The notes: a model not told the origin generated them from the sequence alone. Numbered from the stretch's first letter, positions 1,814 to 25,000 are shown. The stretch is 64,000 nt of DNA from Clostridia bacterium (GCA_017444825.1 JAFSVU010000026.1:86009-150008), one strand, 5' to 3'. Numbers and translations: made by a program.

Positions 1814-1901
1814 TTTCAGTGAACCTCCAAAATACATGTAAGGCCGGGATCGGATCCTAAGCGGCCTTGAAATTGCATTATAATTTTAATATAAAAATAA
1901 G

Positions 1902-4424
1902 TCAAGTTTCAGCAGAAAGCGACTGCTTTTCCCGCTGTTTTTTCCCGGTCTTCCGGTTCTTTCTTCTCTGATCTTCGGTTTTCTTTTCCGGTTCGGCTAA
2001 AGAACCGCATTTGTAGTTGTCATCTCTGATAACCAAAGCATAGCCAAGGCTGTCAAGAAGCGACCAGGCTCCGTCAAGAAGAGTATAGTCGTATTTGATC
2101 ACGTCGGCTTCCGCCTCTTCCTCTGGTGTCACGTCGTTCATGTGTTTTGTGACATAATCCTTGAGATCTTTTTCATAGTCCTTGCTGTCCGAATTTGGAT
2201 ATAACTTGTCAAATCTTGAAACAAGAGCTTTGACCTTACGGAACGTGTATAAAGCATCGAACGTACACAGATTACCGTGATGCCTGAGAGCAAAATTCTT
2301 GCCAAAGGAATGTTCCTTTTTTTCATTAAGCTCGCACAGTATTGACTGTTCCGATGCCGGAACAAAGCCTTTTGTAATATGGAAAGCGTTCCACCTGGTA
2401 TGCTCCGTTTCCGCAAGATTACCTCTTTTTGATCCTTTTAAAAAGTCCGGGGAGAACTCAAGCATATATACACCACTTTCCATCTCCTTGAGATGAGGCA
2501 TATCATCTTTCCCGTAAATAGCATAATACTCATCAAAAGTCAGTTGATGCGCCTTGTCATAACTCTTTGGAACGATATTAAGTCCCATAAGATGCATTTT
2601 TAACCTTAGAGAAAGCACTGCGTATGTATTCGACAATCTCTGAAATTCATTCTGCCCGTACCATTTGGCATTAATGCCGTCATCGATCCGGAACTCTGAA
2701 ACACCTGTCTTAACGAAACCGTATTTATGTAACACGTAATTATGTATAGCGGCGTTGTTGTATTTCTCATTTGTGATCATTTTGTAGTTGAACTTGGTCT
2801 CACGGTCTACGCCGAAACAAAAGACTCTGTCCCGTAGAGTCGATGAAAAATAGATCTTCTTGTCAGAATATGCCTTATTCGAAGACGTCCTTGTAAAGAA
2901 ATACGTATTGGCGGATCTTTGGCGATCGTCGGAAACAGTCATAATAAGCTTATTTACGATATCAACGTTCGCAGAATCAGAACCCAAGGCAACGATCACA
3001 AAGTTAAGGTCCTTTTCATTGGCGCCAAGGCAGGATACTACGTTTTTGTAAAAATCACTGTCGTTAATGTCGCACTCTTTAAACTGTTCTGTGGCGGGAA
3101 GTTCCGGAACTTCCAGATAATCTCCCGAGTTTTTGACATACTTGCCGTCTTTATCAACGGAACGTTTGTTATATGCGCATATCCCGTCATGACATGATTC
3201 GGGATCCATATCAAGCCTGTATTCATTCTTATCTCCGATCCGATCGAAAAACTCACGTCTGTATCTGTAATACGTGTGATTAAGGTTTTTATGATCTACG
3301 GATTTGTTCTTGTCAAAGAAATAATAATTGACCTTCTTAAGCTTCTTCTCAGTCTTTCCGTCCTTCGATGTATACTCACTGAGAAACTGGTTAGTCGCGA
3401 CCATAGTCAGGAACATCTGCTGATTTGTCCTTCCGAAGCCTACAAACACGACGTTGATATTTACGTCGGGGCGGATCAGCGCTTTTTCAGTGTCGATATG
3501 CTCCTTTGTCATAAATTCGGTAAGAGGGTATTTCCCGCAAAAATCCATGGCCAGAAGTGTATATTCGTTCTTATAATGTAAAAAACCGTGCGATTCATTA
3601 ACAAAGGAAACGTATGTATTCTCAAACTCTCTGTCGCCAAGCACGTAAGCATCGAAGCGGTGGTCGGGCTTGTCCGGTCCCGTATAGTTATTATTGGCGA
3701 GTTCGTTCGCAAATGAAACTATGCGTCCGCACCAGAACATATTCAGTTCTTCGTCATTGGTGTTGATAATGATATTGATCTTTCCGGGTTTTCTGAAACG
3801 CCTGTACTGCATAAAAACGTATTTCTCAAGCCAGGCCTCCAGATGGTCATTGCTGCTGAACGAAAGAAAAGAGGCTCCTTTAAGAAACAGCTCATCGGCC
3901 TGCTCTTTTTTCATCACGTCAGCAATATATTTACGTTTTACGTCACACGTATTGTAGATCTCGAGATTCTCACTGTTGTTACCAATGATAACGACTTTTT
4001 CCTTGCGGGAGAATTTGAAGGACAGTCTAAAGCGGGCCATATCAATGCCCTGATGAAACAGAGAAATGACCAGTAACACCGCATTTATAAATACCAAAAC
4101 GTAGCAGAGATAAAGAGCGATTTTAAAAAATATGTTTGCGTCGATCAGGCCGAGATCGAAGGTGTATTTAAGGGCTATAAGACTTATGGACTCGGAAACG
4201 CCCTTCCAGAGGGCCTTGAAAAAAGAAAGCCCGTCATAGTAAAAACCAATGGTGAGAAGAGGAATCGCGACGAAATAAATAATGGTGCATTTACCGATCT
4301 TAAAACTTCTCAAATAAGCGCGTTTAGCCGATCTCCCCGGCTTTTTAAAAAAGCTAAACACCACCGCAAACACAAGGCAGACCATAAATACAATGCAGAG
4401 AATGGAAACAATTGTGTAAAGCAT
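1902..4424 (-). CDS. Hypothetical 840-aa integral membrane protein. It has 4 N-terminal TM helices, then a large Lys/Asn/Tyr/Asp-rich soluble region with two Rossmann/RCK(TrkA-N)-like beta-alpha starts (KVVIIGNNSENLEIY and NVVFVGFGRTNQQMFL) and a possible RyR-like motif (LAETEHTRWNAFHITKGF). It may be a CASTOR/POLLUX- or RCK-type channel-like protein
   Basis: Long ORF with an AGGAGG RBS 9 nt upstream of the ATG at 4424. Hydrophobic N-terminus MLYTIVSILCIVFMVCLVFAVVF... Strongly AT-rich codon usage, unlike the flanking groEL and valS. The function call is weak. Confidence 0.6.
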   Translation of the reverse strand: MLYTIVSILCIVFMVCLVFAVVFSFFKKPGRSAKRAYLRSFKIGKCTIIYFVAIPLLTIGFYYDGLSFFKALWKGVSESISLIALKYTFDLGLIDANIFFKIALYLCYVLVFINAVLLVISLFHQGIDMARFRLSFKFSRKEKVVIIGNNSENLEIYNTCDVKRKYIADVMKKEQADELFLKGASFLSFSSNDHLEAWLEKYVFMQYRRFRKPGKINIIINTNDEELNMFWCGRIVSFANELANNNYTGPDKPDHRFDAYVLGDREFENTYVSFVNESHGFLHYKNEYTLLAMDFCGKYPLTEFMTKEHIDTEKALIRPDVNINVVFVGFGRTNQQMFLTMVATNQFLSEYTSKDGKTEKKLKKVNYYFFDKNKSVDHKNLNHTYYRYRREFFDRIGDKNEYRLDMDPESCHDGICAYNKRSVDKDGKYVKNSGDYLEVPELPATEQFKECDINDSDFYKNVVSCLGANEKDLNFVIVALGSDSANVDIVNKLIMTVSDDRQRSANTYFFTRTSSNKAYSDKKIYFSSTLRDRVFCFGVDRETKFNYKMITNEKYNNAAIHNYVLHKYGFVKTGVSEFRIDDGINAKWYGQNEFQRLSNTYAVLSLRLKMHLMGLNIVPKSYDKAHQLTFDEYYAIYGKDDMPHLKEMESGVYMLEFSPDFLKGSKRGNLAETEHTRWNAFHITKGFVPASEQSILCELNEKKEHSFGKNFALRHHGNLCTFDALYTFRKVKALVSRFDKLYPNSDSKDYEKDLKDYVTKHMNDVTPEEEAEADVIKYDYTLLDGAWSLLDSLGYALVIRDDNYKCGSLAEPEKKTEDQRRKNRKTGKKQREKQSLSAET

Positions 4425-4524
4425 AAAGTCTGCCTCCTGTTTCGTACGGCAACAGGCCGGAAAAGAAAATCTTCCCGGCCTTCAGTCATAAATTTGTTAA
4501 GAAGTCAAATCTCAGAATGGCTTA

Positions 4525-6162
<1,638 letters not shown>

Positions 6163-6219: not shown

Positions 6220-6510
6220 TTAATCCTCGACAACTGCGAGAAGATCACTCTGTCTGATGATCATGAAGGTCTCGCCGTCAAGCTTAACTTCAGTGCCGGA
6301 ATACTTGCTCATCATAACTTTATCGCCGACTTTAACTTCCATCGGTATAAGCTTACCGTTATCGTCTCTTCCGCCCGGTCCAACTGCAACTACTACGGCA
6401 TAGTCCTGCTTTTCTTTAGCGCTGCCGGTGAGAATGACGCCGCCCTTGGATTTTGTCTCAAGGTCAAGCATTTTAATAACTATCTTATCACTTAAAGGTC
6501 TGATTTTCAT
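6220..6510 (-). CDS. groS: Co-chaperonin GroES (10 kDa)
   Basis: 96 aa, MKIRPLSDKIVIKMLDLETKSKGGVILTGSAKEKQDYAVVVAVGPG...; lies 69 nt upstream of groEL, the classic operon. Confidence 0.95.
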   Translation of the reverse strand: MKIRPLSDKIVIKMLDLETKSKGGVILTGSAKEKQDYAVVVAVGPGGRDDNGKLIPMEVKVGDKVMMSKYSGTEVKLDGETFMIIRQSDLLAVVED

Positions 6511-6566: not shown

Positions 6567-6593
6567 TTAGCACTCAAAAGGTTCAAGTGCTAA
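6567..6593 (-). promoter_or_regulatory. CIRCE element (HrcA operator) in the groES leader
   Basis: TTAGCACTC-aaaaggttc-AAGTGCTAA. This differs from the consensus TTAGCACTC-N9-GAGTGCTAA at one position and sits immediately downstream of the -10 on the transcribed strand. Confidence 0.8.
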
Positions 6594-6601
6594 CAGAGCA
6601 T

Positions 6602-6629
6602 ATTATACTACAAAAATATTGCTTTGCAA
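6602..6629 (-). promoter_or_regulatory. Putative sigma-A promoter of groES-groEL
   Basis: On the minus strand: TTGCAA (6629-6624), a 16-nt spacer, then TATAAT (6607-6602), just upstream of CIRCE. Confidence 0.5.
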
Positions 6630-9944: not shown

Positions 9945-10403
9945 CTATCTGTCAGCGGCGTCAATGTAAGCAGAGACATCCGGCTCACAAAGCGCCAATA
10001 TTTCCAAAAGCCTTGCGTCATCACCGGAAAGCTCAAGATAACCGATGAGAGCCTCAAACCCTGTCGCCTTGAGATAGTCCTCTATCGACTGATTTTTCGG
10101 TATACTTTTAGGCTTGGAATTCCTTCCTCTTTTCACGATGGAAAGCTCCGTTTCGGAAAGACTTCCTGTTAAGGAATCAAGTATCTTTGCCTGGGCTCCT
10201 GCGTTTACAGCAGCGGAGCAAACCTTATGAAGTTTCCTCACTCTGGCTCCCGGGATCCTTTTCACAGCAAGTTCACGTACAAAACGTTCAAATACCGTAT
10301 CGCCAATGAATGCCAGCGTCAGGGCATTGTTTAAGGCCGCATCCTTATCTGTAAACTCGTCAAAAACAGGCATTTCCACTCCTCCGGGAGCATCCTGTTT
10401 CAC
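9945..10403 (-). CDS. mrnC: Mini-ribonuclease 3 (Mini-III, YazC/MrnC)
   Basis: LNNALTLAFIGDTVFERFVRELAV... is a single RNase III catalytic-domain signature in a protein of about 140 aa. In Firmicutes mrnC typically lies next to rlmB. Confidence 0.7.
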   Translation of the reverse strand: MKQDAPGGVEMPVFDEFTDKDAALNNALTLAFIGDTVFERFVRELAVKRIPGARVRKLHKVCSAAVNAGAQAKILDSLTGSLSETELSIVKRGRNSKPKSIPKNQSIEDYLKATGFEALIGYLELSGDDARLLEILALCEPDVSAYIDAADR

Positions 10404-10534
10404 AGCAAAAAAGCAGATGCTTCCGAGCTGAAATTATACATTAAAAAACCTTTTCGGTCAACCAAAAAAGGCATAAAGAAAGGGGGCTTATTGCCCCGCA
10501 CCTAAACATAAAATACTCCTAAATAAAGGGATAT

Positions 10535-11545
10535 TTAAATATCCGGACTTAGAAATACCGTACCCGGAGTCTTTTTAAACCAGGTGATCTGTCTTTTGGC
10601 ATACCGTCTGGTGTCTTTTTTAATTCTGTCATATACTGCATCGCGGCACCAACGCTCTTCCGGAATGCCCAGCTCGCGAAGCTCCGGAAAGTCAAGATAA
10701 GGTATTATTTCTTTATAACCAATGGCATTAAGCGCGGTAAGTTTAAGTATATCAAGGCTCTTTACAGATTCATCGCTGACGTTGTTTCTGCATGCCGCAT
10801 AGACCATTCTTACTTCATCGTCAAGGCCCTTCTCCCTCATATCATCGACCCGCTCATTGATCTTTTTGTAAAGCAGATCTCTTTCCGGCAGAAGACAGTA
10901 TGTGAGGTAACGGAGCTTTGGCGTGTGTAAAAGAGATTCTTCATTTCGCTGTTGTCGAGGTTTCCCGGTAACAAAGAAAAGCACAAGCTGTCTGTAGACC
11001 CTTTTGATATTGTTCATATGTATTTCGGCAGCGGCTTCGGGATCGTATTTTGCAAGAAGACCGTGAAGAAGCACCTTATCTCCGCTTTCAAAAAGCTGAT
11101 CGCATTTTTCTTTTTCGGCCCTGTATTCCTCACAGAAATAAGTGTCTTCCGGCTCGTCCGTGTAGGTTCTGTTGTCGATTAGGGTGTTGATATAAAGACC
11201 TGTACCGCCGCAAAACACCGGCACTTTTCCCCGGGATATAATGTCACCTGTAATTATCTCAGCAGACTCTTTATATTTAAAAACGCTGTAGTTCTCCCAG
11301 GGATCGACGATATCGATCATGTGGTGAGGTATCTTCTTTCTGTCCTCGAGGGAAGGCTTCGCAGTGCCTATATCCATCATACGGTATATCTGCATGGAAT
11401 CACAGGAAACAAGCTCCCCGCCTAAAAGCCCGCAAAGCTCCATGGCAAGGTGTGACTTTCCTGAAGCCGTGGGCCCGCATATGATGATCGCCGAAGGTCC
11501 GCTCTGTCTTCTGTATTCGTCTGCGATTTCTGCCGCAATGCTCAT
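10535..11545 (-). CDS. miaA: tRNA dimethylallyltransferase MiaA
   Basis: P-loop IIICGPTASGKS and DSMQIYRMMDIGTAKP; found in the conserved mutL-miaA arrangement. Confidence 0.9.
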   Translation of the reverse strand: MSIAAEIADEYRRQSGPSAIIICGPTASGKSHLAMELCGLLGGELVSCDSMQIYRMMDIGTAKPSLEDRKKIPHHMIDIVDPWENYSVFKYKESAEIITGDIISRGKVPVFCGGTGLYINTLIDNRTYTDEPEDTYFCEEYRAEKEKCDQLFESGDKVLLHGLLAKYDPEAAAEIHMNNIKRVYRQLVLFFVTGKPRQQRNEESLLHTPKLRYLTYCLLPERDLLYKKINERVDDMREKGLDDEVRMVYAACRNNVSDESVKSLDILKLTALNAIGYKEIIPYLDFPELRELGIPEERWCRDAVYDRIKKDTRRYAKRQITWFKKTPGTVFLSPDI

Positions 11546-11547
11546 GA

Positions 11548-13470
11548 TCAGGCCCTGTGGAATCTCCTCTCGATCTCATATTGAGTCATTTTAAATATGA
11601 TAGGTCTGCCGTGTGGGCAAGTGCCGGGATTTTTCACAGCAAGTAAAGAGTCGAGAAGATGTCTTATTTCAATATCAGAAAGCTTCATATTGCCTTTAAT
11701 GGCGGCTTTGCAGGCCATCGTATAGACTGCATGATCCGGGAACACGTTGATCATCCCTTCTCCGGTCCTCGGACTGCCTATGGCGGTGACCACAAAAGCC
11801 TCCGCGGAAGACTCGTCAATAAGCGTGGGAACGGATCTTATGATAACGGTGTCAGAGCCGAATTCATCGATCTCGAAACCAAGCTTCTCAAAAGCGTCCT
11901 TTATCTCTCTGAACCTTATCATCTCTGACGGTCCGAGCCTCACGGTAATGGGAAGCAGAAGTGGAGTCGACGGATTGTCGGCACCGAGAAGCCTTGCTTT
12001 GATCTCCTCATATTTAAGACGCTCGTGGGCCGCGTGCTGATCTATCATGTAAAAAGCGCCGTTAAACTCCAAGAGAATGTAGGTCTCAAGAAGCTGCCCT
12101 ATAACACGTCCGTATTTATAAACGTCGTAAAACTCACCGGAAAACTCCGGGTCTTTCTTTTCAGGCACCTTCGTCGCCCGCTCATCTTCGCTTGCGGTAA
12201 CGACTTTTCCGCCCTTCATACCGACGTCAATGCCCTCAAACAAAGCCTGTTCACGCACGCCAAGGGGCTCTACGTCCTTCTTCTGGGCGTATGCATCAGG
12301 GACGGGTTCGGATACGGCCCCGGCTTTTATGATCTCGGAAAACGAAGGAACAGAGAATGGCTCATACTTCTTTGGCATTTCTGAACTCTTCGGCTGTTCA
12401 GTGGATTTCAGGGTTTCGGTGGCTTTTGGTGCTTCCTGTATCTTTGGCGATTCGTTTGATAAAGCAAACTCCGGCGGAGCGATGGCGGGATCGTACACGG
12501 CTCCCATTATCGCATGGTAGACACAGCGGAAGACCGCATTGTTGTCGGCAAACCTGACCTCTGTCTTGGCGGGATGGACGTTTACGTCGACTCTTGACGG
12601 CGGAACCTCGATATTCAAAACAGCAAACGGGAAACGGCCCTTCATGGTAAGGGTCTTGTAAGCCTCATCAATAGCGGCGGACACAGTTTTGCTTTTAACG
12701 TAACGGCCGTTGACGAATGCCAGCTGTCTGTTCCTGTTGCCGTATGTGAGTTCTTTGAGACCGCACAGGCCCGTGACCTTTACATTGTCTTCTGAAAATG
12801 CGCAATCCGTTAGTTTTTCGGATATCTCCCTGCCGAAAATACCATAAACGGCAGACCTGAGATCGCCTCCCGGAGTAAAGAGAATCTGTTTTTTGTCTGA
12901 GATAAGTCTGAATGAAACAGCCGGGTGCGAAATTGCAATTCTCTCCATGGTCTCCGCCACGTAAGACGCCTCGGTCTGATCTCTCATCAGAAATTTATAC
13001 CTTGCCGGGGTGTTGTAGAAGAGATTCTCAACGATAAAGCTTGTACCGTCCTTTGTACCGCAGGGGCCTGACTCAATAAGCTCTCCACCCTCAATAACGA
13101 CGCAGGTGCCCTGATCGTTGTCCCTCGTTTTGGTCCTGAGAGTCACCTTGGAAACGGCAGATATACTTGCAAGCGCCTCCCCTCTGAAACCGAGAGTATT
13201 TATCTCGAACAGGTCCTCGGAGGAACGAATTTTACTGGTGGCATGCTTGTCAAACGCGATGATGCAGTCATCAGGCTCCATGCCGGAGCCGTTGTCGTCG
13301 ATCCTTATGTATTTAATACCGCCGTTTCTGATCTCGACGGATATCCTTGTACTTCCGGCATCGATGGAGTTTTCAACCATCTCTTTTACGACGGAAGCAG
13401 GTCTTTCAACGACCTCGCCAGCCGCTATCTGGCTGGATGTCAGATCGTCAAGTAGAATGATCTTTCCCAT
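11548..13470 (-). CDS. mutL: DNA mismatch repair protein MutL
   Basis: GHKL ATPase N-terminus: IAAGEVVERPASVVKEMVENSIDAGST...IRIDDNGSGM...GFRGEALASI. 640 aa. Confidence 0.92.
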   Translation of the reverse strand: MGKIILLDDLTSSQIAAGEVVERPASVVKEMVENSIDAGSTRISVEIRNGGIKYIRIDDNGSGMEPDDCIIAFDKHATSKIRSSEDLFEINTLGFRGEALASISAVSKVTLRTKTRDNDQGTCVVIEGGELIESGPCGTKDGTSFIVENLFYNTPARYKFLMRDQTEASYVAETMERIAISHPAVSFRLISDKKQILFTPGGDLRSAVYGIFGREISEKLTDCAFSEDNVKVTGLCGLKELTYGNRNRQLAFVNGRYVKSKTVSAAIDEAYKTLTMKGRFPFAVLNIEVPPSRVDVNVHPAKTEVRFADNNAVFRCVYHAIMGAVYDPAIAPPEFALSNESPKIQEAPKATETLKSTEQPKSSEMPKKYEPFSVPSFSEIIKAGAVSEPVPDAYAQKKDVEPLGVREQALFEGIDVGMKGGKVVTASEDERATKVPEKKDPEFSGEFYDVYKYGRVIGQLLETYILLEFNGAFYMIDQHAAHERLKYEEIKARLLGADNPSTPLLLPITVRLGPSEMIRFREIKDAFEKLGFEIDEFGSDTVIIRSVPTLIDESSAEAFVVTAIGSPRTGEGMINVFPDHAVYTMACKAAIKGNMKLSDIEIRHLLDSLLAVKNPGTCPHGRPIIFKMTQYEIERRFHRA

Positions 13471-15037: not shown

Positions 15038-17401
15038 TTAATTTGGCTGCACCAGTTTTGCGATATCCCAAACGTGTCTCTTGATGTAGAGGAAGTCAAG
15101 AGGCGTCACAGAATTGACGGCAGCAATATTTTTAGTCGAAACGGCTCCCGCCACCAGCCAGATGTCGGCAAGCTCCGATATGCCCCAGACATGGCGTTTT
15201 ACGTAAAGAAAATCAAGTGCATTGATCACTCCGTCACCGGTAACATCGCCAAAGAGTACCACCTTGAACGTGGCAAGTGTGTCACCTGTTATAACGGACT
15301 TTACTGTCACAACTGAACCTGTGGATATGATGCTGTCGCCTGTTATCACCTGGCCGTTTTTATTTTTGACCTCTACGGAGGTGTTGGTCAGTTCGAACTT
15401 TGAAAGGAATTCGGAGACCTTCATGTTTTCCGATATTCCATAGACGATATTTCCGGAAGAAGCAGTGCCGGATGTAGGGAGAGATACACTGTACTCTACA
15501 ACAGGCGTTGGAGTGGGAGTGGGTGTGGGTGGGGGTGTGGGCGTCACGTTAACTGTCGGTGTCGGCGTCGGCGTGGGAGTTGGCGTCGGGGTCGGAGTAG
15601 GTGTGGGTGTGGGTGTCGGCGTCGGCGTTGGTGTCGGCGTCGGGGTCGGCGTTGGTGTCGGCAGCGGCGGATCGAACTCCTCTTCGCTTCTCAAAATGGT
15701 TATGGTATAAAGACCTGCGTCTCCCCGCTGAGATTTGGTTACGATCTCAAATACGTTCTCGCCAATGTAAAGCGTCTTCTCTCCGAGACCGCTTACGGAT
15801 GTGTTTGAATTGATGGGCTCGGCTGTAAGGTTGACCTTACTGATGCTCTTCGGGAGTCTCAAGGTGTAGCTGAAAACACCGGATTCAAAAGTCGGGCTGA
15901 TGATATAATCGCCGACCTTGATGCTTTTAAGTCTGTAATTGGGGTTTCCGTCCTTTGTGGGACACGGGCAGGAAAGCTCCGGAATATCGAGGTATACCGG
16001 GATCTTAAACAAAAACGAGGATTCGAACAGCCCTGCGGATTCGTACGTATTCTTTACGTTCATACTCTCCGAGGTGGCGGCCTCAATGTTCTGCATGTAT
16101 TGGTGCCAGAATCTGCTGAAATATTCGCCCTCCACGTCAAATTTCTGAAGGTAGAAGGTGTCCTGACCCTTGGTTATGTAGTTCATGCCAACTTTTTTGC
16201 TTCCGCCGGCAAGGGCAAGATAAGGAGTGGTCCAGCCCTCGCGTCTTGCCTCCGCAAAACCGTTTGCGTATATCTGAGCATTGGTGGAGCCCGCGGCCTC
16301 TATGTTGAAATAGTTGTACAGGCCTTCATATCCCGGCTCAACACCTGATATCAGCGGACTCTTACCGAGTCCCTGTTCCTGTCTAACCCTTGCGGCCAGC
16401 ATGAGCGGATTCACATTATTAAGCTCACCGAGTCTCATAAAAGCCTGAGCATAGGTGATGTCTCTACCGTCCTCGTCGCCCATAGGCACGTTGGCGTGGG
16501 ACATAAAAGTACCGCTGAGAAGCTTTTCGACGCTCGCCTCGGTAACCACGTCAGGGTTGTATGAAAGCTGTTCAAACTGGAATATATGCTTCTCGTTGAG
16601 GAAGTTCCTGGGATCAAGGAAATAGTCGATAAGTTCATACGAAGCGCATGTAAAATAAGGACCCGAAACACCGACCCAGGCATCCTTGTCCCAGTCGAAG
16701 GCCCCCGGCCTCAAAGATTTCCATGAGGATATGGCAGTGACTTCGATGTCGTTTGAGTTGAATTCATATTCAGCGGCAAGGACAGTCTGCCAGCTGAGGT
16801 CCGTCTGAAAAGCCTTAAACCTCCATTCAGGATGGAGGTAATGAAGGACTCTGAGATAAAGTCTGTATGACTCGGGAAAGCCCTCCTCATCCATGAGAGC
16901 CTCAAATTCGGGATCGCTCGAAGGCGCAACCAAACCAATGTATTGAGCCGAAACATAGCCGTATTTTCTGGCAGAGCCATTGGCGTAACTGACGTAATAC
17001 CAGGCGCTGTCGCTTACAAAAACCCTGCCGTGGATCTCAATGACCGTTCCGTATTTAAGTGAGTCGAGTATAGTCGATTCTGTGGAGGGACCCTCTCTGA
17101 CTCTGAGTGAGCTGTCGGTATAGACGTCCACGTATCCGCAAAGTGTCCTGCTGAAGAGCTGAAGCTCGCCTTCTTCTCCGGGAGGTATGCTGCCGGGATC
17201 GTGGGGTCCCGGAGTTTCGGTGGGTACAGGGGTCTCAGTTTCCGAAGGAACGGGAGTATCGGTTGCAGTAGGTGACTGATCCGGGTCCTCTCCGTGGACT
17301 GTCAGTCCTCCCGAAATAAAAGAAAAGAACATAACGACAGCAAGAAGTACGCAAAACAGCTTCGTAAGCCTTATGTGCTTTTCCTGCAAAGTCATGTTCA
17401 T
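15038..17401 (-). CDS. Dockerin-containing multidomain peptidoglycan hydrolase: signal/TM, SH3b, glucosaminidase (mannosyl-glycoprotein endo-beta-N-acetylglucosaminidase-like), cadherin-like beta-sandwich, (PT)n linker, type-I dockerin
   Basis: SH3b: [36 protein letters not shown]. Glucosaminidase-like region: [14 protein letters not shown]. Cadherin-like: [29 protein letters not shown]. About 20 consecutive PT dipeptides. C-terminal duplicated dockerin calcium-binding loops [21 protein letters not shown] and [16 protein letters not shown]. Confidence 0.75.
15505..15690. repeat. (PT)n coding microsatellite: about 30 tandem ACN-CCN dipeptide codons
   Basis: ggcgtcggcgtgggagttggcgtcggggtcggagtaggtgtgggtgtgggtgtcggc... 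On the antisense strand it reads as a spurious (GV)n ORF (15465..15710 +). Confidence 0.8.
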
Positions 17402-17523
17402 CGGAATTTTTCTCCTTTGTAACGCACCATTTTAAAATAAACGATACAAGTTTATTATACAGCTTTTCCCCGAGAAATTCAAGGAATCATTTTTACTGCA
17501 AAAATAGCGGCATTATGGGCTCG

Positions 17524-18360
17524 TCAATAATAGTCGACCCTTCTGTTGTTCTCAAACACCGGGGGATATATATTCTCCGAAGGATCGATGCCCGCAAGTC
17601 TGCAGCAGGCCTCGTGGGCCCTTTTCGTAAGATCGATAACCGCCTCATGTCTCGGAAGACTCTTATCGGGAAACAGTGGCTCGCCAATGTTAAACGTGAT
17701 CATCCCTTCCCGGTATATCAGCTTAAACAGTCCCTTAGGCTCACGGTAGGAAAAAGCGCACGGAAGGATCGGGACGTCAGCCTTGACGGCGAAATTTGCG
17801 GCGCCGGTCTTAAAAGGTCTTATAGGCATGTAATATTCCCACATACTGCCTTCCGCTGCGATATGGAGCCAGCCCCCATCCTTAATATATCCCAGAACAG
17901 TGTTTGACATGGCGGCCTGAGCTTTGATGTCTCCCACCGGCACAGGGATGCCGCCGTTATATCTTATAAGCTTTTTATTCTCGCCCATCATGTTTTTGTC
18001 CCATACGAGGATACGGGTCTTCCGCCTCCAAAAGGAAAGCATTTCAACTATATAATCCCAAAGATGTATATGGTTTGCAACGGAAATAACGCCTTTTGAG
18101 AGCTCACCTTTATGCTTTTTAAGATTATCTTTCCCCTTTACCTTAAGTCCGAGAGCAATGTAGGTGATCGGCCTTGCCACGGTCTGGACAAGCACCCTCA
18201 TCAGTGCAGCCTTAAATCTGTATGATCTCGAATCATCTATGAACGGGTAGTCTTTGTCAAACACAGCCCCGTCATTTTTCTTGACGACAAGGTAATGTCT
18301 GTCGGTTATATCAGGAAAAGGGTATTTTGTAGGCTTGGGATCATATGGCATAACGATCAT
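17524..18360 (-). CDS. plsC: 1-acyl-sn-glycerol-3-phosphate acyltransferase family protein (PlsC/LPLAT)
   Basis: HX4D acyltransferase motif in ISVANHIHLWDYIV, and a ...PIRPFKTGAA... block. The start is placed at the internal Met (MIVMPYDPK) because the longer ORF (to 18450) would overlap the upstream gene by 80 nt. Confidence 0.65.
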   Translation of the reverse strand: MIVMPYDPKPTKYPFPDITDRHYLVVKKNDGAVFDKDYPFIDDSRSYRFKAALMRVLVQTVARPITYIALGLKVKGKDNLKKHKGELSKGVISVANHIHLWDYIVEMLSFWRRKTRILVWDKNMMGENKKLIRYNGGIPVPVGDIKAQAAMSNTVLGYIKDGGWLHIAAEGSMWEYYMPIRPFKTGAANFAVKADVPILPCAFSYREPKGLFKLIYREGMITFNIGEPLFPDKSLPRHEAVIDLTKRAHEACCRLAGIDPSENIYPPVFENNRRVDYY

Positions 18361-18370
18361 TTCTCCAATT

Positions 18371-19510
18371 TCATTTAAATCTTGCACATTCAAGTACCTT
18401 AAGGGACGTGAAGCCGTATATCTTAAAAGGTCTGAAGTCCGAAAGAGCAAGTTCTTTCATCCTTTTTAAAACAGCGTCTTCATCATCCTTTGACCTCATA
18501 TTTATAAAATCGCACATGATGATTCCCCTAAGGTTTCTCAGAGATACTATCCTTGAGATCACCTCGCAGCATTCAAGGTTGACATCGCGGGCACCAAGTT
18601 TTGACTCCGCGGAATTAACGTCAAATACGTGCATCGCTTCGGTCTTGTCATAAGTTATAACTGCTCCGCTCTTTGTTTTTACGTACCTGCCGAGGTATCT
18701 CGGGATCTTTCGGAGTGCGTCTTTGACGTCAAAGAGCCTTTCGATATTGTGATCGACCGAAACCTCCGGGGGAGCCGGAAGATAGTCGAAATAACTTCTA
18801 AAGGAAAGAGCGGTCTCCGGATCATCAGTGACTATACTTGAATAGTCGTTGTACTTTAAAAAAGCGGTCACATATTCGGGAAGCTCAGTCTTATAAAGAA
18901 TATCTCCGGGAACCGCAGGCTTTTTGGCAGGCGATCCTTTTATACTTGAAAGAATCTTCGCAAACCTTTCGCAAAAAGTTTCCAATTCCTCAGTTATCAT
19001 TAAATTACTGACGCGGCTGTCACCACAAATAGTTCTCACCGTAACGGCGGTTTTATATCCGTCAAACGCCATCCTCCCGCAAACATCTGATAAAGCCTGT
19101 TTCAGTATTTCGGCTTTGGCGGCAGGTATTTTTTTTGATACCTTAAGCACCTCCGGGACAGACTGTTTGGAAAAATCGGGTATAAACTCAACAAAAGTGA
19201 ACAGTCCGGTAAATGAGATGACAGGTGAGGCCCTGTACTGCTTGGAGCCTTCCGGAAGTGAAACGATCCTTAAGGGATACGCTTTTCCTTTTTCAGGCAT
19301 ATTGTCGTCGCAAAAAGCATTTACGTCGGAACCGATATCGGAGAAATAAAAACCGAGACTGTCATCTTTCTTTACAGCTTTTCCCGCAATGATGTCAAAT
19401 TTGTTAAGTTCTGAGAATGAATACGTAAACTGCGCACAGGGCTCACCCTGCTCTGTTACGGTTATTTCGGCACTTTTGAATTCGGTCCTTCGGCAGTAAA
19501 GCTCCTTCAT
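18371..19510 (-). CDS. Rne/Rng-family ribonuclease: a short, divergent RNase E/G catalytic-domain protein
   Basis: LRGIIMCDFINMRSKDD... corresponds to the RNase E/G DNase-I-like active-site block GLIVIDFIDM. The protein is 379 aa and sits in the conserved clostridial cluster with the radical SAM TIGR03960/TIGR03936 pair. Confidence 0.55.
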   Translation of the reverse strand: MKELYCRRTEFKSAEITVTEQGEPCAQFTYSFSELNKFDIIAGKAVKKDDSLGFYFSDIGSDVNAFCDDNMPEKGKAYPLRIVSLPEGSKQYRASPVISFTGLFTFVEFIPDFSKQSVPEVLKVSKKIPAAKAEILKQALSDVCGRMAFDGYKTAVTVRTICGDSRVSNLMITEELETFCERFAKILSSIKGSPAKKPAVPGDILYKTELPEYVTAFLKYNDYSSIVTDDPETALSFRSYFDYLPAPPEVSVDHNIERLFDVKDALRKIPRYLGRYVKTKSGAVITYDKTEAMHVFDVNSAESKLGARDVNLECCEVISRIVSLRNLRGIIMCDFINMRSKDDEDAVLKRMKELALSDFRPFKIYGFTSLKVLECARFK

Positions 19511-19522
19511 CTTGGTTATTCC

Positions 19523-20143
19523 TCAGTACATATTGTTTTTGTGGATCGATATCAGATCAGCTGAAACTCCGGCTTTTTCGCAGACAGCTGAAAAAGCAAG
19601 CTCCGGCCTCAGATTTCCACCCATTCCCGTCGCCACAGTGATATACAAAGCACCGTCTTTAACAAGAAAGCTTTTGATCATCGGTTTTATATCCACAAGC
19701 TTCTCCCCGCTCTTGCTGCGCTTCATTGTCATCAGCTCTTTGCAGGAATAAAATGCGGAGTTAAGAGAATCCTCATCTTCCGGGCTGATACTGCCTATCC
19801 TTGCGGTATATTCGGCAAAGGACACGGAGCAAAGTATCGAATCGTAGGGTTTTATAAGAGGCTTAGCGCTTAGGACCGTGATCTCGCCCGGGAGAGTACT
19901 GTTTAAAAGATCAATGATCTCAGAGGGTTCATAAGGTCTTGCAAACGTTATATCGAGAAGCTCGCAATCCGAAGTAAGACCCACAGGGAGAGGATTTCCG
20001 AAAACAAGCTGCATTCTGGGGTTGAAACCGCATGAAAACGCAACTTCAATGCGCGCCCTTCTTATGGCCCTTTCGAACACTTTTACAAAATCCAAATGTG
20101 ATACAAATTTAACGGAGTCTCCCCTTTTGTAAGTCAGCCTCAT
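19523..20143 (-). CDS. Radical-SAM-associated protein, DUF2344/TIGR03936 family
   Basis: MRLTYKRGDSVKFVSHLDFVKVFERAIRRARIEVAFSCGFNPRMQLVFGNPLPVG matches the family N-terminus (KFxSHLD...ERAxRRA...GFNPRP). The start is placed at Met20 of the listed ORF so that it does not overlap the upstream gene. Confidence 0.7.
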   Translation of the reverse strand: MRLTYKRGDSVKFVSHLDFVKVFERAIRRARIEVAFSCGFNPRMQLVFGNPLPVGLTSDCELLDITFARPYEPSEIIDLLNSTLPGEITVLSAKPLIKPYDSILCSVSFAEYTARIGSISPEDEDSLNSAFYSCKELMTMKRSKSGEKLVDIKPMIKSFLVKDGALYITVATGMGGNLRPELAFSAVCEKAGVSADLISIHKNNMY

Positions 20144-20147
20144 AATG

Positions 20148-22016
20148 TCAGCAGCCAACACACACACCCCCTTTGTATCTTGCAACACCGCAGCCGGCAC
20201 ATTTGGTCCTGCAATCGGGAGTAGTCTCAGCGCGAAGAGCCTTTTCGAGTTCTCTTTTCATAAAGGCCTCCGTGACGCCAATGTCAATTATGCTCCAGGG
20301 AAGCGGGGCATCCGGATCGGGAGTTAAAGATCCTTCAAAGCCTATGACGCCAATGCGCTCTTTTTCTTCTTTCCACACATCGTAGCTGAAGAACTCGCTC
20401 CAGCTGTCAAAGCCTCCCGTCCTCTTCCAGACGTTATAAATAAGCTCCGAGGCTCTTCTGTCACCTCTCGCAAGATAGTTTTCAACCACCGAAAGTTCAG
20501 GATCATGCCATGAAAAACCGAATTTGGGGCCGAGAGCATCCTTAATGAGTCTTTGGCGTCTTTTTATCTCCTCGTATGAAATCTGCGGGAACCACTGAAA
20601 AGGCGTGTGAGCCTTGGGTACAAATGTGGAAACAGATACAGTGATCGAAGGGCTTTTCACCTTCTCGCCCCGGTGGCACTCGTAATATACGTCTCTCACT
20701 TTTCTCGCAAGTGCGGGGATAGCAAGGAGATCTTCATCCGTCTCGGTGGGAAGTCCCAGCATAAAGTAAAGCTTAACGCTTGAATGTCCGCTGGAAAAAG
20801 CAAGCTTAGATGATCTGATAAGATCTTCCTCGGTGATCCCTTTGTTTATAACATCCCTTAGTCTCTGAGTTCCGGCCTCAAGAGCAAAAGTTAGACCGCT
20901 TTTTCTAACCTTTGATATCTTTTCCATAAGATCAAGGGAGAAGGAATCGATCCTTAGGCTGGGAAGTGAAATATTCATGTTTCTTTTTTCGGTGTAGTCG
21001 ATGAGGCCATCCGTCAGCTCCTTAAGCCCGGAATAGTCGTCGGTAGCAAGGCTTAAAAGTGATATTTCTTCGTAACCGGTGCACTCGGAAAGAGCCACAG
21101 CAGCGTCGATAAGCTTTCCGGGGCTTCTTTCCCTTGCCGGTCTGTAAATGTATCCCGCCTGGCAGAACCTGCAGCCTCTCACACAGCCTCTGAATATTTC
21201 CAGCATTATCCTGTCGTGGATAGCCTCAAGGTAAGGCACCACCTGGGACTTCATAAGATATGTGTTCTCAAAATCCGGAACCACCCTTCTTAAAACCTTT
21301 TCAGGAGCTATCCCTTTAAACTCATCTTTAACGAATATCCCTGCGAATGATCCGTCACTTTCGTACTTAACGTCATAAAAAGACGGCACATAAACGCCCT
21401 CGATCTTAGCGGCCCTTTTCAGAAACTCGATCCTGGGAAGGCCCTCTTTTTTCCATTTTCTGTAGCAGTCAAGGATCTCAGGGAGCATATCTTCACCGTC
21501 GCCTACGTTAAACAGGTCGAAAAAATCGGCAATGGGCTCGGCATTGACGCAGGCAGGTCCGCCGCCAATAACAAAAGGCATGCCATCGGTCCTGTCTTTG
21601 GCGTAAACAGGAAGACCTGCAAGGTCTATCATATTGATGACATTGGTGTATGAGAGCTCGTACTGGAGCGTAAAACCAATGAAATCAAAATCTTTGATCT
21701 CCTCCTGGGATTCGTGGGCAAAAAGCCTGTAGCCCTTCTCTCTCATGATTTTTTCCAGATCCGGCCAGGGCGCAAAGACCCTCTCACACCAGATCCAGTC
21801 TCTTTCGTTGAGAAGACCGTAAAGGAGCTTCATCCCGAGGTGGGACATGCCGATCTCGTAGGAATCGGCAAAGCAAAAAGCAAATCTGACGTCGACCTTA
21901 GACTTGTCTTTAACAACACTGTTTAGCTCGCCGCCTGTATATCTGGAAGGCTTTTCCACCTTCATAAGTATGCTGTCAGGTATGTAAGACAAAAGACTTA
22001 CCTCCAAAATACTCAA
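20148..22016 (-). CDS. B12-binding-domain radical SAM protein (TIGR03960 family)
   Basis: CX3CX2C radical-SAM motif in FRGCVRGCRFCQAGYIY. There is an N-terminal B12-binding-like region, and the protein is 622 aa. Its ATG overlaps the dnaE stop as ATGA. Confidence 0.8.
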   Translation of the reverse strand: MSILEVSLLSYIPDSILMKVEKPSRYTGGELNSVVKDKSKVDVRFAFCFADSYEIGMSHLGMKLLYGLLNERDWIWCERVFAPWPDLEKIMREKGYRLFAHESQEEIKDFDFIGFTLQYELSYTNVINMIDLAGLPVYAKDRTDGMPFVIGGGPACVNAEPIADFFDLFNVGDGEDMLPEILDCYRKWKKEGLPRIEFLKRAAKIEGVYVPSFYDVKYESDGSFAGIFVKDEFKGIAPEKVLRRVVPDFENTYLMKSQVVPYLEAIHDRIMLEIFRGCVRGCRFCQAGYIYRPARERSPGKLIDAAVALSECTGYEEISLLSLATDDYSGLKELTDGLIDYTEKRNMNISLPSLRIDSFSLDLMEKISKVRKSGLTFALEAGTQRLRDVINKGITEEDLIRSSKLAFSSGHSSVKLYFMLGLPTETDEDLLAIPALARKVRDVYYECHRGEKVKSPSITVSVSTFVPKAHTPFQWFPQISYEEIKRRQRLIKDALGPKFGFSWHDPELSVVENYLARGDRRASELIYNVWKRTGGFDSWSEFFSYDVWKEEKERIGVIGFEGSLTPDPDAPLPWSIIDIGVTEAFMKRELEKALRAETTPDCRTKCAGCGVARYKGGVCVGC

Positions 22017-25000
22017 AATGAATAGTTTTTGATCTCATTTTCCACCAATGCAGATCCGGAGCATCGACCCTTGTAGAGGACCACCTCAGGGGCATATGCG
22101 TCCCGAAGTTCCACCTCTCTTGGCCCGTCAAAGAATCTCAGGAAAGAGATAGCTGCATTAAGCCTCTTCGGATCCACCATTACCGACAATGGCTCACGGG
22201 CCTCACCGCCATCATACCTTTCTCCACCTGATCCTCCTTGTGCGCTATATGCAGGTCTTCCGCTTCCCGGGCTGTAGGAGTCAGGAGCAAAAAGAGCCTC
22301 CGCTATAACCGAAGCCGCCTCCTCATCTCTGAGGCTTATCCTTCCCGCCACGACGGCGAATTTGTCGATCTCGGCAAGGCCTCTTGACTGCTCATAGGTC
22401 TTCGGGAAAAGGATCACCTCAAAGCTGCCGGTAAGATCCTCAAGGGATACAAAGGCCATGGTCTGTCCGTTCTTGGTTATTTTTTTCTTGACGCCGGTAA
22501 CCACGCCAAACATGACCACGTTCTGATTGTCCTTCACCGAATCCGAGTCATCACGAATTTCACCATCGTTTTTATCGTCACCGGATTGCTTCAGCATGGA
22601 TGCGGTGCAGTTTACGAATTTTCTTATGAACTCGGTGTACTGCTGAAGGGGATGCCCGCTGATATAGACACCCGAGACCTCTTTCTCAAATCCCAGAAGC
22701 TCGTTCTTCGGAAGCTCGGGAAGATCCGGGTAGTTATCGTAATCATCGGCGCCGCTGTCCTCCATGAGATCGAAAAATGAGAACTGCCCCTCGGAAACGT
22801 TTTTGGAGGCGGTATTCACTGCGTCCAGCACGACCTCGTAGGATTTTAACAGTATGTTCCTGTTAAGGCCCAGCGAATCGAAAGCTCCGGCTTTGATGAA
22901 TGAATCCACAGCCCGCTTATTGATGTCCATCGACTTCATCCTTTTGGCAAAATCGTAAAAGTTTCTGTAGCGGCCGTTTTCATTACGTTCGTTCACCAGT
23001 GACAGCACCGCATTCTCACCAACGTTCTTAAGAGCCGCAAGGCCGAATCTGATCTTGTCGCCCACCACAGTGAAATAGGTGTAGCTCTCATTGATGTCGG
23101 GGGGAAGCATCTCAATGCCCATTTCCTTGCAGTCGGCGATGTACTCTGACACCTCGTCGCTTTTGGTTATAAGGCTGTTAAGAGTTGCGCACATAAACTC
23201 CACGGGATAGTAGAGCTTGAGATAAGCGGTCTCGTAAGCGACCACGGCGTAACAGGCGGCATGGGCCTTGTTGAATGCATAGCTCGCGAAATCGATCATC
23301 TTGTCGAATATCTTATTGGTTATTTCAGGGGAGATGCCCTTCTTTTCAGCGCCCTCGACAAACAGCGACCGCTCCTTCTGCATCACGTCATGCTTTTTCT
23401 TTGCCATGGCCCTTCTCACCAGGTCTGAGTGACCCATTGTGTAGCCGGCGACGTCGCGAACGATCTGCATGACCTGTTCCTGATAGACTATGCAGCCGTA
23501 AGTGACCTTGAGTATAGGCTCAAGAAGAGGATGATCATATTTTATGTTTTCGGGATGCTTTCTGTTTTCAATGTACGTCGGTATCTGGTCCATGGGACCC
23601 GGTCTGTAAAGAGCGATGCCCGCTATGATCTCCTCAAGGCTTGTAGGCGAGAGGTTCATCATGAAATTGGTCATTCCTCCGCTCTCAAGCTGGAATATGC
23701 CCGCGGTCTTACCGTCTGAGATCTGCTTGTAAACGGCCGGATCGTCCATCTCCATGTTGTCGAAATCCACGGTGACGCCCCGGTTCTCCTTGACAAGTTC
23801 AAGAGCGTCCTGAATGACTGTAAGAGTCCTGAGACCGAGAAAATCTACTTTTAGAAGTCCCAGCGCCTCAAGCTTTGTCATAGGGTACATGGTTATGGCG
23901 GAGTCATTGGAAAGCTGCACCGGAACGTATGTGGTGACGGGGTCCCTGGTGAGGACAACGCCCGCAGCGTGAGTTGATATGTTTTTGGGCATGCCCTCGA
24001 TGCGCATGGCCTTGTCAATAAGATCCTTTGTGACCTTGTCGGAATCGTATTTGGCCTTAAGTTCAGGGCTTTTTTTCAATGAATCCGCAATGGTGATATT
24101 GAGTTCCTTTGGAATAAGCTTTGCCACCGCGTCAACGTCCGCATAAGGTATGTCGAGAACTCTTCCTACGTCACGGATAGCACCGCGAGCCGCCATGGTA
24201 CCGAATGTGATTATCTGGGCCACGCATTCCTTGCCGTATTTTGCCACCACGTAGTCTATAACTTCCTTCCGCCTGGTATCGGAAAAATCAACGTCGAAGT
24301 CAGGCATGCTGATACGCTCGGGATTCAGGAATCTTTCGAATGCGAGGTTGTACTTTAAAGCGTTGATATTGGTTATTTTGAGGCAGTATGCCACAAGGCT
24401 TGCAGCACCGGAGCCTCTTCCGGGGCCAACAGTGATGCCGTGGTCCTTGGCGTATTTAATGAAATCCCAGACGATGAGATAGTAGTCGGGGTACTTCATC
24501 CTGATAATGACCGAAAGCTCGTATTCGAGCCTGTCTTTTATCTCGTCCGAGAGATCATCGCCAAAGCGGTACTTTGCACCCTCGTAGGTAAGCTTTCTTA
24601 AGTAATCCGCGCTGGTCATGCCATCCGGAACCTCGAAATTCGGAAGTATGGACTGTACGCCAAGCTCGAACTTTAGGTTGCACATTTCGGCTATTTTTTC
24701 TGTATTTTCAATAGCTTCTGGGACGCTCTCAAAAAGCTTTGTCATCTCTTCCGGAGACTTTAAGTAGAACTGATCCGATTCGAATTTCAGACGGTCCTCA
24801 TCGGCCAGCTTTTTACCGGTCTGGATGCACAGGAGTATATCCTGGATAACGGCGTCCTCACGGTTTACGAAATGGACGTCATTGGTGGCGACAAGGGGTA
24901 TGCCTGTCTCCCTGGAGATGTTTATGAGTTCACGGTTCACCTCGATCTGCTCTAATATTCCGTTGCTCTGAAGCTCGAGATAATAATTTCCTCTTCCGAA

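Follow-up and report, generated by a model that had tools for sequence, protein, structure and literature searches.

The 64,000-nucleotide stretch of Clostridia DNA analysed here (GCA_017444825.1 JAFSVU010000026.1:86009-150008), which we refer to as the window, carries a gene for an 840-amino-acid protein between groEL (4525-6150, minus strand) and valS (start at 1814, minus strand, running off the window). We use X as a working label for this protein and for its gene at 1902..4424 on the minus strand. By exact look-up, the sequence of X is that of NCBI MBQ7445286.1, an entry labelled 'hypothetical protein' from a Clostridia metagenome-assembled genome (MAG). We set out below the modules of X and the genomic company kept by its relatives, and weigh the case for X being a candidate signal-gated membrane effector of anti-phage immunity. 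The features that belong to X itself are as follows.

1902..4424, minus strand: coding sequence of X, 840 amino acids, ATG start; from the open reading frame (ORF) list, the exact look-up, a 97% orthologue and the ratio of non-synonymous to synonymous substitution rates (dN/dS)
4433..4438, minus strand: Shine-Dalgarno sequence AGGAGG, 8 nt upstream of the X ATG, by direct reading of the sequence
4011..4424, minus strand: membrane domain, residues 1-138; from hydropathy, charge, conservation and model helices
3525..3998, minus strand: first RCK/KTN-like Rossmann domain, about residues 143-300, with a beta1-loop IIGNNxxN and a degenerate glycine motif
2790..3473, minus strand: second RCK/KTN-like Rossmann domain, about residues 318-545; from alignment and model
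2025..2789, minus strand: C-terminal domain, helical, residues 546-800, interpreted as a tandem RyR-repeat (Repeat12-like)
1905..2024, minus strand: Lys/Arg/Glu-rich C-terminal tail, residues 801-840, in this lineage only, with a predicted local distance difference test score (pLDDT) below 50

The stop codon of groEL is separated from the ATG of X by 100 nt, and valS starts 88 nt downstream of X. A preliminary description of this DNA, made from the sequence alone, had credited X with a strong ribosome-binding site of its own about 100 nt past groEL, which is borne out by the spacer and the AGGAGG listed above. Every sequence segment that it quoted was also found in X: KVVIIGNN at residue 143 and NVVFVGFGRTNQ at residue 323, both of which are beta1-alphaA starts of Rossmann-like domains in the structure model, TFDLGLIDAN at residues 88-97 and LAETEHTRWNAFHITKGF at residues 670-687. 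Several metagenomic contigs carry an orthologue that is 97% identical to X and has the same gene context, and the two copies differ by 35 synonymous and 25 non-synonymous substitutions, giving a dN/dS of 0.18, which excludes a decaying remnant. The synonymous divergence (dS) between the copies is 0.071 for X and 0.046-0.082 for its neighbours, for which dN/dS is 0.01-0.13. We conclude that X is intact, constrained and passed down together with its flanks, although it is evolving faster than the flanking genes. The conserved orthologue, the dN/dS value and the 1131 related cluster representatives described below together establish that X is a real gene under purifying selection and not a chance ORF. 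By contrast, a 247-amino-acid ORF at 759-1502 on the plus strand is antisense to valS and was discarded as an artefact of ORF listing.

A word-indexed search returned only 13 relatives of X, the next closest being about 37% identical and none carrying a Pfam domain. A family profile was built from these relatives and run against 1.84 billion cluster representatives; it recovered 1131 of them at E<=1e-3, of which 484 reach E<=1e-30, and almost every one is full length at 700-800 amino acids. All of the named members are 'hypothetical protein' entries from Clostridia MAGs. The X family is thus large, unnamed and mostly clostridial, and its members are patchily distributed and found at unrelated loci. 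Scans of X against Pfam, NCBIfam and PADLOC gave no match (for Pfam, none even at E<=10), so that TrkA_N, Castor_Poll_mid, RyR and Ion_trans_2, the Pfam models proposed for checking in the preliminary description, all went unmatched. Neither phmmer nor the profile search found anything meaningful for X among the sequences of the Protein Data Bank (PDB), and tblastn of X against plasmid and phage collections gave no match. A scan of viral contigs yielded a single X locus, which resembles the ordinary chromosomal context with TIR and GNAT genes. Across 88 family sequences the invariant residues are G329, E674, H675, R677, W678, G686, P689, H716, L725, Y778 and D779.

One branch of the family shows a separate peculiarity. 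In a human-gut lineage, a codon-aligned antisense frame of 776-1131 codons stays open across the whole X gene and beyond (for example L120 9911-12238, minus strand, over X at 9989-12178, plus strand; also L126, L118, L138 and L172; L numbers are our handles for loci). Here X uses no TTA, TCA or CTA in about 730 codons, where about 15 would be expected from the neighbouring genes (Poisson P ~2e-7). The antisense product has no Pfam match, and the X gene of the window has no such ORF.

The structure of X was modelled as an AlphaFold2 monomer from a 14-sequence alignment (mean pLDDT 78, predicted template-modelling score (pTM) 0.75). Where four transmembrane (TM) helices had been proposed, we found three hydrophobic helices (TM1, 1-27; TM2, 47-63; TM3, 98-124, which runs on as a helix to 138) together with one strongly amphipathic helix at 68-83 (hydrophobic moment 1.64). 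Because Lys/Arg-rich loops are located at 28-46, which carries an FKxGK motif, and at 125-142, the N-terminus of X is predicted to be outside and everything past residue 125 to be cytoplasmic. The amphipathic helix is followed by the loop LKYTFDLGLIDAN (family consensus LK[FY]D...L...N), and residues 64-97 as a whole read DGLSFFKALWKGVSESISLIALKYTFDLGLIDAN (family consensus LVVLKFD...L...N). In the model, TM2, the amphipathic helix and the loop lead into a 41-residue TM3 helix (98-138), and the beta1 strand of the first Rossmann domain begins at residue 143. As modelled, this arrangement has the topology of a tetrameric cation-channel pore, with outer, pore and inner helix, set on an RCK domain. 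Conservation within the membrane domain is high at G44 (99%), P55 (95%) and N114 (99%), and K86 and Q125 are invariant or nearly so. Since these five residues are so well kept, the membrane part appears to be more than an anchor; invariant polar residues such as N114, K86 and Q125 would be unusual in a mere anchor.

Structural alignment of the model extends over 243-330 residues with the two-domain proteins KtrA, GsuK, TrkA and CASTOR, and over about 122-125 residues with the single-domain TM1088A and Mja218. Generic, unrelated Rossmann enzymes score about 9-10 against the model. Identity between X and the RCK proteins is 9-12%, so these are matches at the level of the fold. The model thus supports two consecutive RCK/KTN-fold domains in X that are structurally closest to RCK proteins and not to dehydrogenases or methyltransferases, and the RCK-like Rossmann starts noticed in the preliminary description are upheld at fold level. 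The two domains differ in their nucleotide-site motifs. The second has G329-F-G331-R-T-N334, with G329 invariant in the 88 sequences, and a conserved acidic residue, D371, ending beta2 (Y367...D371), these motif residues being invariant or nearly so, and it contains a lineage-specific disordered insert at 397-427; the first has merely G148-N-N in its loop.

Residues 545-802 were modelled separately (pLDDT 74.6) and compared by Foldseek with 350,542 chains. The search returned 77 matches. RyR Repeat12 domains, Repeat34 domains or whole RyRs fill all of ranks 1-29 and about 45 of the first 50 places; their alignments run to about 260 columns, which takes in the entire two-repeat domain, the best E is 0.024, and probabilities go up to 0.90. 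The second repeat holds the invariant E674-H675-x-R677-W678 (nt 2391-2405), G686, P689, H716 and Y778-D779, and a lineage-specific insert is present at about 735-765. A second line of evidence comes from a sister family with TM, Rossmann and RyR modules. When its profile was aligned with that of the X family by hhalign, a probability of 98.3% and an E of 1.5e-14 were obtained over X residues 68-568. The sister protein at locus L008 scores 26.8 bits at its C-terminus on Pfam RyR (threshold 27.4), several of its relatives carry a precomputed PF02026 assignment, and its RyR domain aligns to the C-terminus of X with an E of 6.8e-4. In this alignment E674, H675, R677, W678, G686, H716 and Y778-D779 of X fall on the invariant E670, H671, R673, W674, G682, H696 and Y712-D713 of the sister. 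The RyR domain of an HD-RyR-SLOG protein recurrently encoded near X also aligns to X, over the His-x-x-Trp and the His (E 0.005-0.01); as it is the RyR motif alone that aligns, we rejected the idea that X is a paralogue of this adjacent protein. Because neither X nor any of 63 family members is matched by the Pfam RyR model, we call the domain RyR-like and divergent and do not count it as a member by the curated Pfam test. With this wording, the RyR-like C-terminus of the preliminary description stands, on a Foldseek list made up almost entirely of RyR repeats and on a motif that aligns to a Pfam-positive family.

The residues conserved in this domain bear on what it may bind. The phage RyR-domain protein RyDEP binds and hydrolyses 2'/3'-cyclic ADP-ribose (cADPR) through a catalytic dyad of H75 and D117, with W78 stacking on the adenine and H100 on the phosphates, and its ligand residues are stated to be conserved across PF02026 and animal Repeat12 (PMC13232231). 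A second phage protein, RyR Tad, sequesters 3'cADPR via H129/W132, K147/H154 and K170/D171 (10.64898/2026.06.04.730250). H675, W678, H716 and D779 of X take the positions of H75, W78, H100 and D117 of RyDEP and of H129, W132, H154 and D171 of RyR Tad. The RyR-like pocket of X thus appears, from the alignments, to keep the residues by which phage RyR proteins bind 2'/3'-cADPR. Beyond this domain, the Lys/Arg-rich tail contains a 13-nt tandem duplication at 1927-1952 (TTTTCCCGCTGTT / TTTTCCCGGTCTT), which suggests that the tail may have arisen by local duplication.

To survey the genomic contexts of the family we used 7 loci located by exact look-up together with 81 from pattern scans; dereplication of X at 70% identity left 50 lineages. 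For TIR genes we searched iteratively, starting from two TIR domains that Pfam confirms. In 21 of the 50 lineages the available flank contains a TIR gene, which is the immediate neighbour of X in 11 of these; among lineages with at least 6 kb of flank the figures are 18 of 33 and, for immediate neighbours, 10 of 33. All 12 TIR neighbours that were submitted to Pfam pass the TIR_2 gathering threshold, and the additional domains seen in TIR neighbours are TPR, Sel1, LRR, PP2C, methyltransferase and GNAT. At L099 (4175-7537), L104 (8748-12250), L108 and L165 the TIR gene and X form a same-strand cassette of two genes. Judged by the rarity of TIR genes in place of a matched random-gene control, the linkage (55%) appears to lie far above any plausible background. 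Because relatives of X are tightly linked to TIR genes, the option that the preliminary description had listed last, a defence-like membrane effector, is the one now favoured. Taken as a whole, the reading given in the preliminary description is largely upheld.

Two further partners recur beside X: at 11 loci the HD-RyR-SLOG protein, and at 6 loci a member of the TM-Rossmann-RyR sister family. In the closest relatives the cluster comprises a TIR gene, a 686-amino-acid protein, a 296-amino-acid P-loop-like protein, a GNAT fusion, X, HD-RyR-SLOG and a TIR-TPR protein, of which PADLOC recognises the TIR proteins alone, and weakly. The HD-RyR-SLOG protein (about 750 amino acids; RyR 33 bits on Pfam; SLOG/YpsA-like) is encoded directly after X at L005 10182-12410, L007 10396-12738 and L011 2962-5208. 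It is a candidate for a second, soluble signal-responsive effector and has no PADLOC model.

We compared the locus of the window across valS-bearing genomes, one per species. The nearest species (L012, an uncultured Clostridia MAG) is 91% identical in valS and 91.5% identical in groEL, and the next relatives are at most 70% identical by valS. In L012 the order is pcrA-groES-groEL-304 bp-valS with no trace of X, and groEL does not adjoin valS in any of the more distant relatives. X is thus an indel in the groEL-valS interval; because the distant relatives never keep groEL beside valS and so supply no outgroup, the gene was either inserted into this spacer or alone retained in it. The features that flank X are as follows.

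4455..4480, minus strand: hairpin 3' of groEL, G+C-rich with an 11-bp stem (z -2.87), followed by UGUUGCCGU and no U tract
1877..1905, minus strand: valS promoter-like site, TTGACT-17-TATAAT, 11/12 matches, kept in L012
4525..6629, minus strand: groES-groEL operon, with groES at 6220-6510, groEL at 4525-6150 and a promoter-like site at 6629..6602
6567-6593: CIRCE operator between the promoter-like site and groES, TTAGCACTC-N9-AAGTGCTAA, 1 mismatch

When the window and L012 are aligned, homology ends at the groEL hairpin and resumes at the -35 box of valS. The left edge of the inserted segment accordingly lies directly 3' of the hairpin; at the same spot L012 has a canonical terminator, a hairpin with UUUUU, and a terminator scan did not call the hairpin of the window. 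We place the right edge at the valS -35 hexamer, TTGACT, since the TGA stop codon of X is embedded in it. We also considered whether X might be a mobile element with terminal repeats and rejected this, as we found short repeats only, together with a perfect 13-nt inverted repeat (TTTTCTTTTCCGG / CCGGAAAAGAAAA, 1979-1991 / 4457-4469) of borderline significance (about 0.06 expected per region), the arms of which are in the coding sequence of the X tail and in the groEL hairpin. Past valS, on contig L001, positions 15327-22514 encode a glycyl-radical enzyme and its activase, a 682-amino-acid protein of no assigned function, a 569-amino-acid Mbeg1-like/lipase-like membrane protein and, on the opposite strand, a tyrosine recombinase; a mobile or variable region may have its edge here.

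Given the CIRCE operator between promoter-like site and groES, the groESL operon that precedes X is probably under HrcA control and inducible by heat shock. A promoter scan found no sigma-70-like site in the 100-nt spacer between groEL and X. Because the spacer has no sigma-70-like site, the hairpin has no U tract and groESL has both a promoter-like site and CIRCE, the simplest model is that read-through from the heat-shock operon probably supplies the transcription of X, and the position of X behind groESL suggests stress-linked expression.

The preliminary description had described X as AT-rich with a deviant choice of codons and had taken this as a sign of lateral acquisition. The low GC content is real, as X, at 0.418, has the lowest value among 41 long ORFs (window mean 0.48). 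However, the values at first and second codon positions (GC1 0.452, GC2 0.308) are those predicted from the amino acids and window codon usage (0.450 and 0.307), and at third positions GC3 is 0.495 against 0.556 expected, eighth lowest of the 41 in a range of 0.45-0.67 for the other genes. The codon-usage distance of X from the rest of the window is 0.217, compared with 0.225 ± 0.057 for long genes (z -0.14), and AAA, AAT and TAT are just 5-12 points above window usage. The residues N, F, Y, K and H are over-represented in X, and A, G and P are under-represented. We conclude that its low GC is mostly a matter of amino-acid content and that, with GC1 and GC2 following that content and codon usage typical, composition alone does not show transfer. 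It was dropped as decisive evidence; the part of the earlier proposal that stands is the indel itself, seen as the absence of X between groEL and valS in L012.

Thoeris systems are defined as operons of TIR and effector genes. The X family pairs a candidate pocket for ADP-ribose (ADPR)-derived signals, an RCK pair and a conserved membrane module with linkage to TIR genes, and for this reason we judge the chances to be about even that X is a candidate Thoeris-like, signal-gated anti-phage membrane effector, orphaned at this locus. As modelled, the architecture would be TM-RCK-RCK-RyR-like, in a family of three-module inner-membrane proteins. In the mechanism that we envisage, a TIR protein would sense infection and make an ADPR-derived signal, which would bind the RyR-like pocket, possibly with a nucleotide at the second Rossmann site. 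The RCK assembly would then move the inner helix (TM3), and the membrane domain would open or disrupt the membrane so that the infected cell is stopped (abortive infection). For the orphan copy in the window, the trigger might be an endogenous nucleotide or the product of a TIR encoded at another place in the genome. A more specific form of this proposal, possible though doubtful, is that the X family represents an undescribed class of immune effector in which a Repeat12-like pocket senses a TIR-made, cyclic-ADPR-type signal and opens a channel via an RCK ring, the window copy being domesticated or stand-alone. Established by the present analysis are the gene, the indel, the folds, the conserved residues and the family's linkage to TIR genes; the ligand, the pore, the defence role and co-transcription with groESL are inferred.

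Several observations weigh against the effector proposal. Around the window copy, neither a TIR gene nor any recurrent partner occurs in the roughly 75 kb surveyed, which reach 62 kb to one side and 10 kb beyond valS (the latter on the near-identical contig L001). A TIR gene is also missing in about 15 of the 33 well-flanked lineages, and roughly a third to a half of lineages are orphans like the window copy. None of the K+ selectivity filters looked for (TVGYG / TVGFG, or the ADxGNH of CASTOR/POLLUX) is present in residues 64-97, which we read directly and which agree here with the preliminary description, and the sole alignment to a K+ channel, made with an approximate MthK M2-linker-RCK query, is unusable (E 0.032, probability 1.6%). 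Among the 63 family members scanned, Pfam RyR was found in 0 at E<=1, TrkA_N appeared in 3, only marginally at E ~0.2, and MurD_N was likewise marginal, with no curated threshold reached. Neither X nor most neighbours of the family have a PADLOC model. The structure models derive from shallow alignments of 12-14 sequences, and the Foldseek template-modelling scores (TM-scores) of 0.30-0.38 are modest, fold-level support. Finally, the distance from H716 to Y-D is about 34 residues in typical members and 63 in the window copy, owing to the 735-765 insert, against 17 in canonical domains, so that the connector before the Asp exceeds the canonical length by about 17 residues, or by 46 in the window copy; given this longer spacing, the equivalence of Y-D to the catalytic or binding Asp depends on one profile alignment.

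An alternative is that X is a housekeeping or stress protein, an RCK-gated cation pathway or transporter regulator controlled by nucleotides (NAD(H), ATP/ADP), expressed with groESL under heat shock and without a role in phage defence in this organism. The RCK/KTN fold is the best structural match of X, and its second Rossmann domain keeps the GxGxxN and the acidic residue of beta2 that are typical of dinucleotide binding. The gene comes directly after groEL, the operon of which has a CIRCE operator; the hairpin between the two genes lacks a U tract, and X has no promoter-like site to itself. It is also under purifying selection, and no TIR gene is near. We nevertheless regard this alternative as unlikely, because X is absent from the same locus in L012, the family is patchy with homologues at unrelated loci, and more than half of the well-flanked lineages are TIR-linked; in addition, a K+ selectivity filter is lacking and known RCK channels make no use of an RyR-like domain.

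Quite improbable, in our judgement, is that X is membrane-anchored with some other function, the Rossmann domains being enzymatic or a scaffold, the membrane part an anchor or envelope sensor, and the TIR linkage a consequence of residence in defence islands. Tight same-strand pairs of TIR and X genes, with gaps below 250 nt, recur in several unrelated lineages, and both the ADPR-binding residues and the polar residues of the membrane domain are conserved, all of which speaks against this account. It does draw on the lack of membership in any known family at the level of hidden Markov models, on structural matches that are fold-level only at 9-12% identity, on the many lineages without a TIR gene, and on the GNAT, P-loop-like and unassigned proteins that are also found in the neighbourhoods. 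That X is a membrane-anchored regulator of TIR signalling, using its RyR-like domain to hydrolyse or sequester signals of the cADPR type and thereby set a threshold for immunity or shut it off (the orphan buffering stray signals), would fit the apparent conservation of the His and Asp of the RyDEP dyad with the ligand-holding Trp and His, and the presence in multi-gene clusters of a second RyR protein, HD-RyR-SLOG, that resembles a soluble effector, but is very improbable since two RCK domains and three conserved TM helices bearing invariant polar residues would be superfluous in a sponge or glycosidase, X is the sole candidate effector in the two-gene cassettes with TIR, and the known RyR-type sponges are small soluble phage proteins.

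More than 1100 sequence clusters that are common in gut and rumen Clostridia and unannotated in any library searched here gain an architecture and a testable function, and it can be seen that a conflict-type gene can lodge, intact and under selection, within one of the most conserved housekeeping neighbourhoods. So far, the only demonstrated role of the RyR domain is in phage counter-defence, as a sponge or a glycosidase (two preprints of 2026: PMC13232231; 10.64898/2026.06.04.730250). Were the effector proposal correct, RyR/Repeat12 would be a host-side sensor of TIR immune signals and would form a new sensor-effector pairing in Thoeris-type immunity. X would be the first case outside eukaryotes of an RyR-type ligand pocket physically coupled to a channel-like module, with a bearing on the question of direct action of cADPR on animal RyRs. 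In the more specific and doubtful form of the proposal, a prokaryotic 'cADPR-gated, RyR-domain-bearing channel' would offer a functional, and possibly an evolutionary, precedent for that long-debated action.

When set beside the RCK-gated systems (MthK, GsuK, KtrAB/TrkAH, Kef and CASTOR/POLLUX), X is alike in having two consecutive RCK/KTN-fold domains right after the last TM helix, in the succession, as modelled, of outer helix, amphipathic helix, loop and inner helix, and in a soluble part that is cytoplasmic (as predicted for X). It differs from them in carrying two additional parts, a TM helix at the N-terminus and an RyR-like domain at the C-terminus, and in lacking a TVGYG- or ADxGNH-type filter. 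It shows no Pfam match to TrkA_N, TrkA_C, Ion_trans_2 or Castor_Poll_mid, and its sequence identity to these systems is 9-12%. The PF02026 proteins (B. thetaiotaomicron 3nrt, animal RyR Repeat12, RyDEP and RyR Tad) are almost the only fold matches of its C-terminal domain. The invariant E-H-x-R-W, downstream His and Y-D of X align to those of the PF02026-positive sister family and correspond to the residues shown to bind 2'/3'-cADPR in the phage proteins; like animal Repeat12, X has two repeats in one chain. Unlike these proteins, the domain escapes the Pfam model in 63 members, has longer loops and carries a connector that is about 17 residues longer before the Y-D. Moreover, whereas the phage proteins RyDEP and RyR Tad are small and soluble, X is host-encoded and its RyR-like domain is fused to a membrane/RCK module.

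The TM-Rossmann-RyR sister family (L008 10240-12420; P0212-P0226) is homologous to X over the pore-like loop, TM3 and both Rossmann domains, has the same domain order and is often encoded beside X (L008, L101, L142, L146, L159/160). It is about 16% identical to X and is uncharacterised as well, and its RyR domain, unlike that of X, lies at or near the Pfam threshold.

With respect to Thoeris, a 2025 survey listed 29 putative effector types, including membrane pores, and described in type X (a Thoeris type, not our protein) a validated 'ion channel' effector, ThsK, that is paired with a TIR protein and for which the signal is unidentified (10.64898/2025.12.03.692087). The tables of that survey, which give effector labels and not sequences, contain no 'RyR', 'TrkA', PF02026 or PF02254 (10.64898/2025.12.03.692087). 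X differs from the Thoeris membrane effectors (types II, V and VII, and ThsK of type X) in having an RyR-like sensor in place of SLOG, Macro or SLATT and in matching no PADLOC model; its clusters are often larger, with two TIRs, HD-RyR-SLOG, a GNAT fusion and two unassigned proteins, and the window copy is without a TIR. In common with these effectors, members of the X family adjoin TIR_2 genes, often in two-gene cassettes on the same strand, and X would join a candidate sensor of an ADPR-type signal to a membrane module; type X, as described, is a parallel in pairing a TIR protein with a channel.

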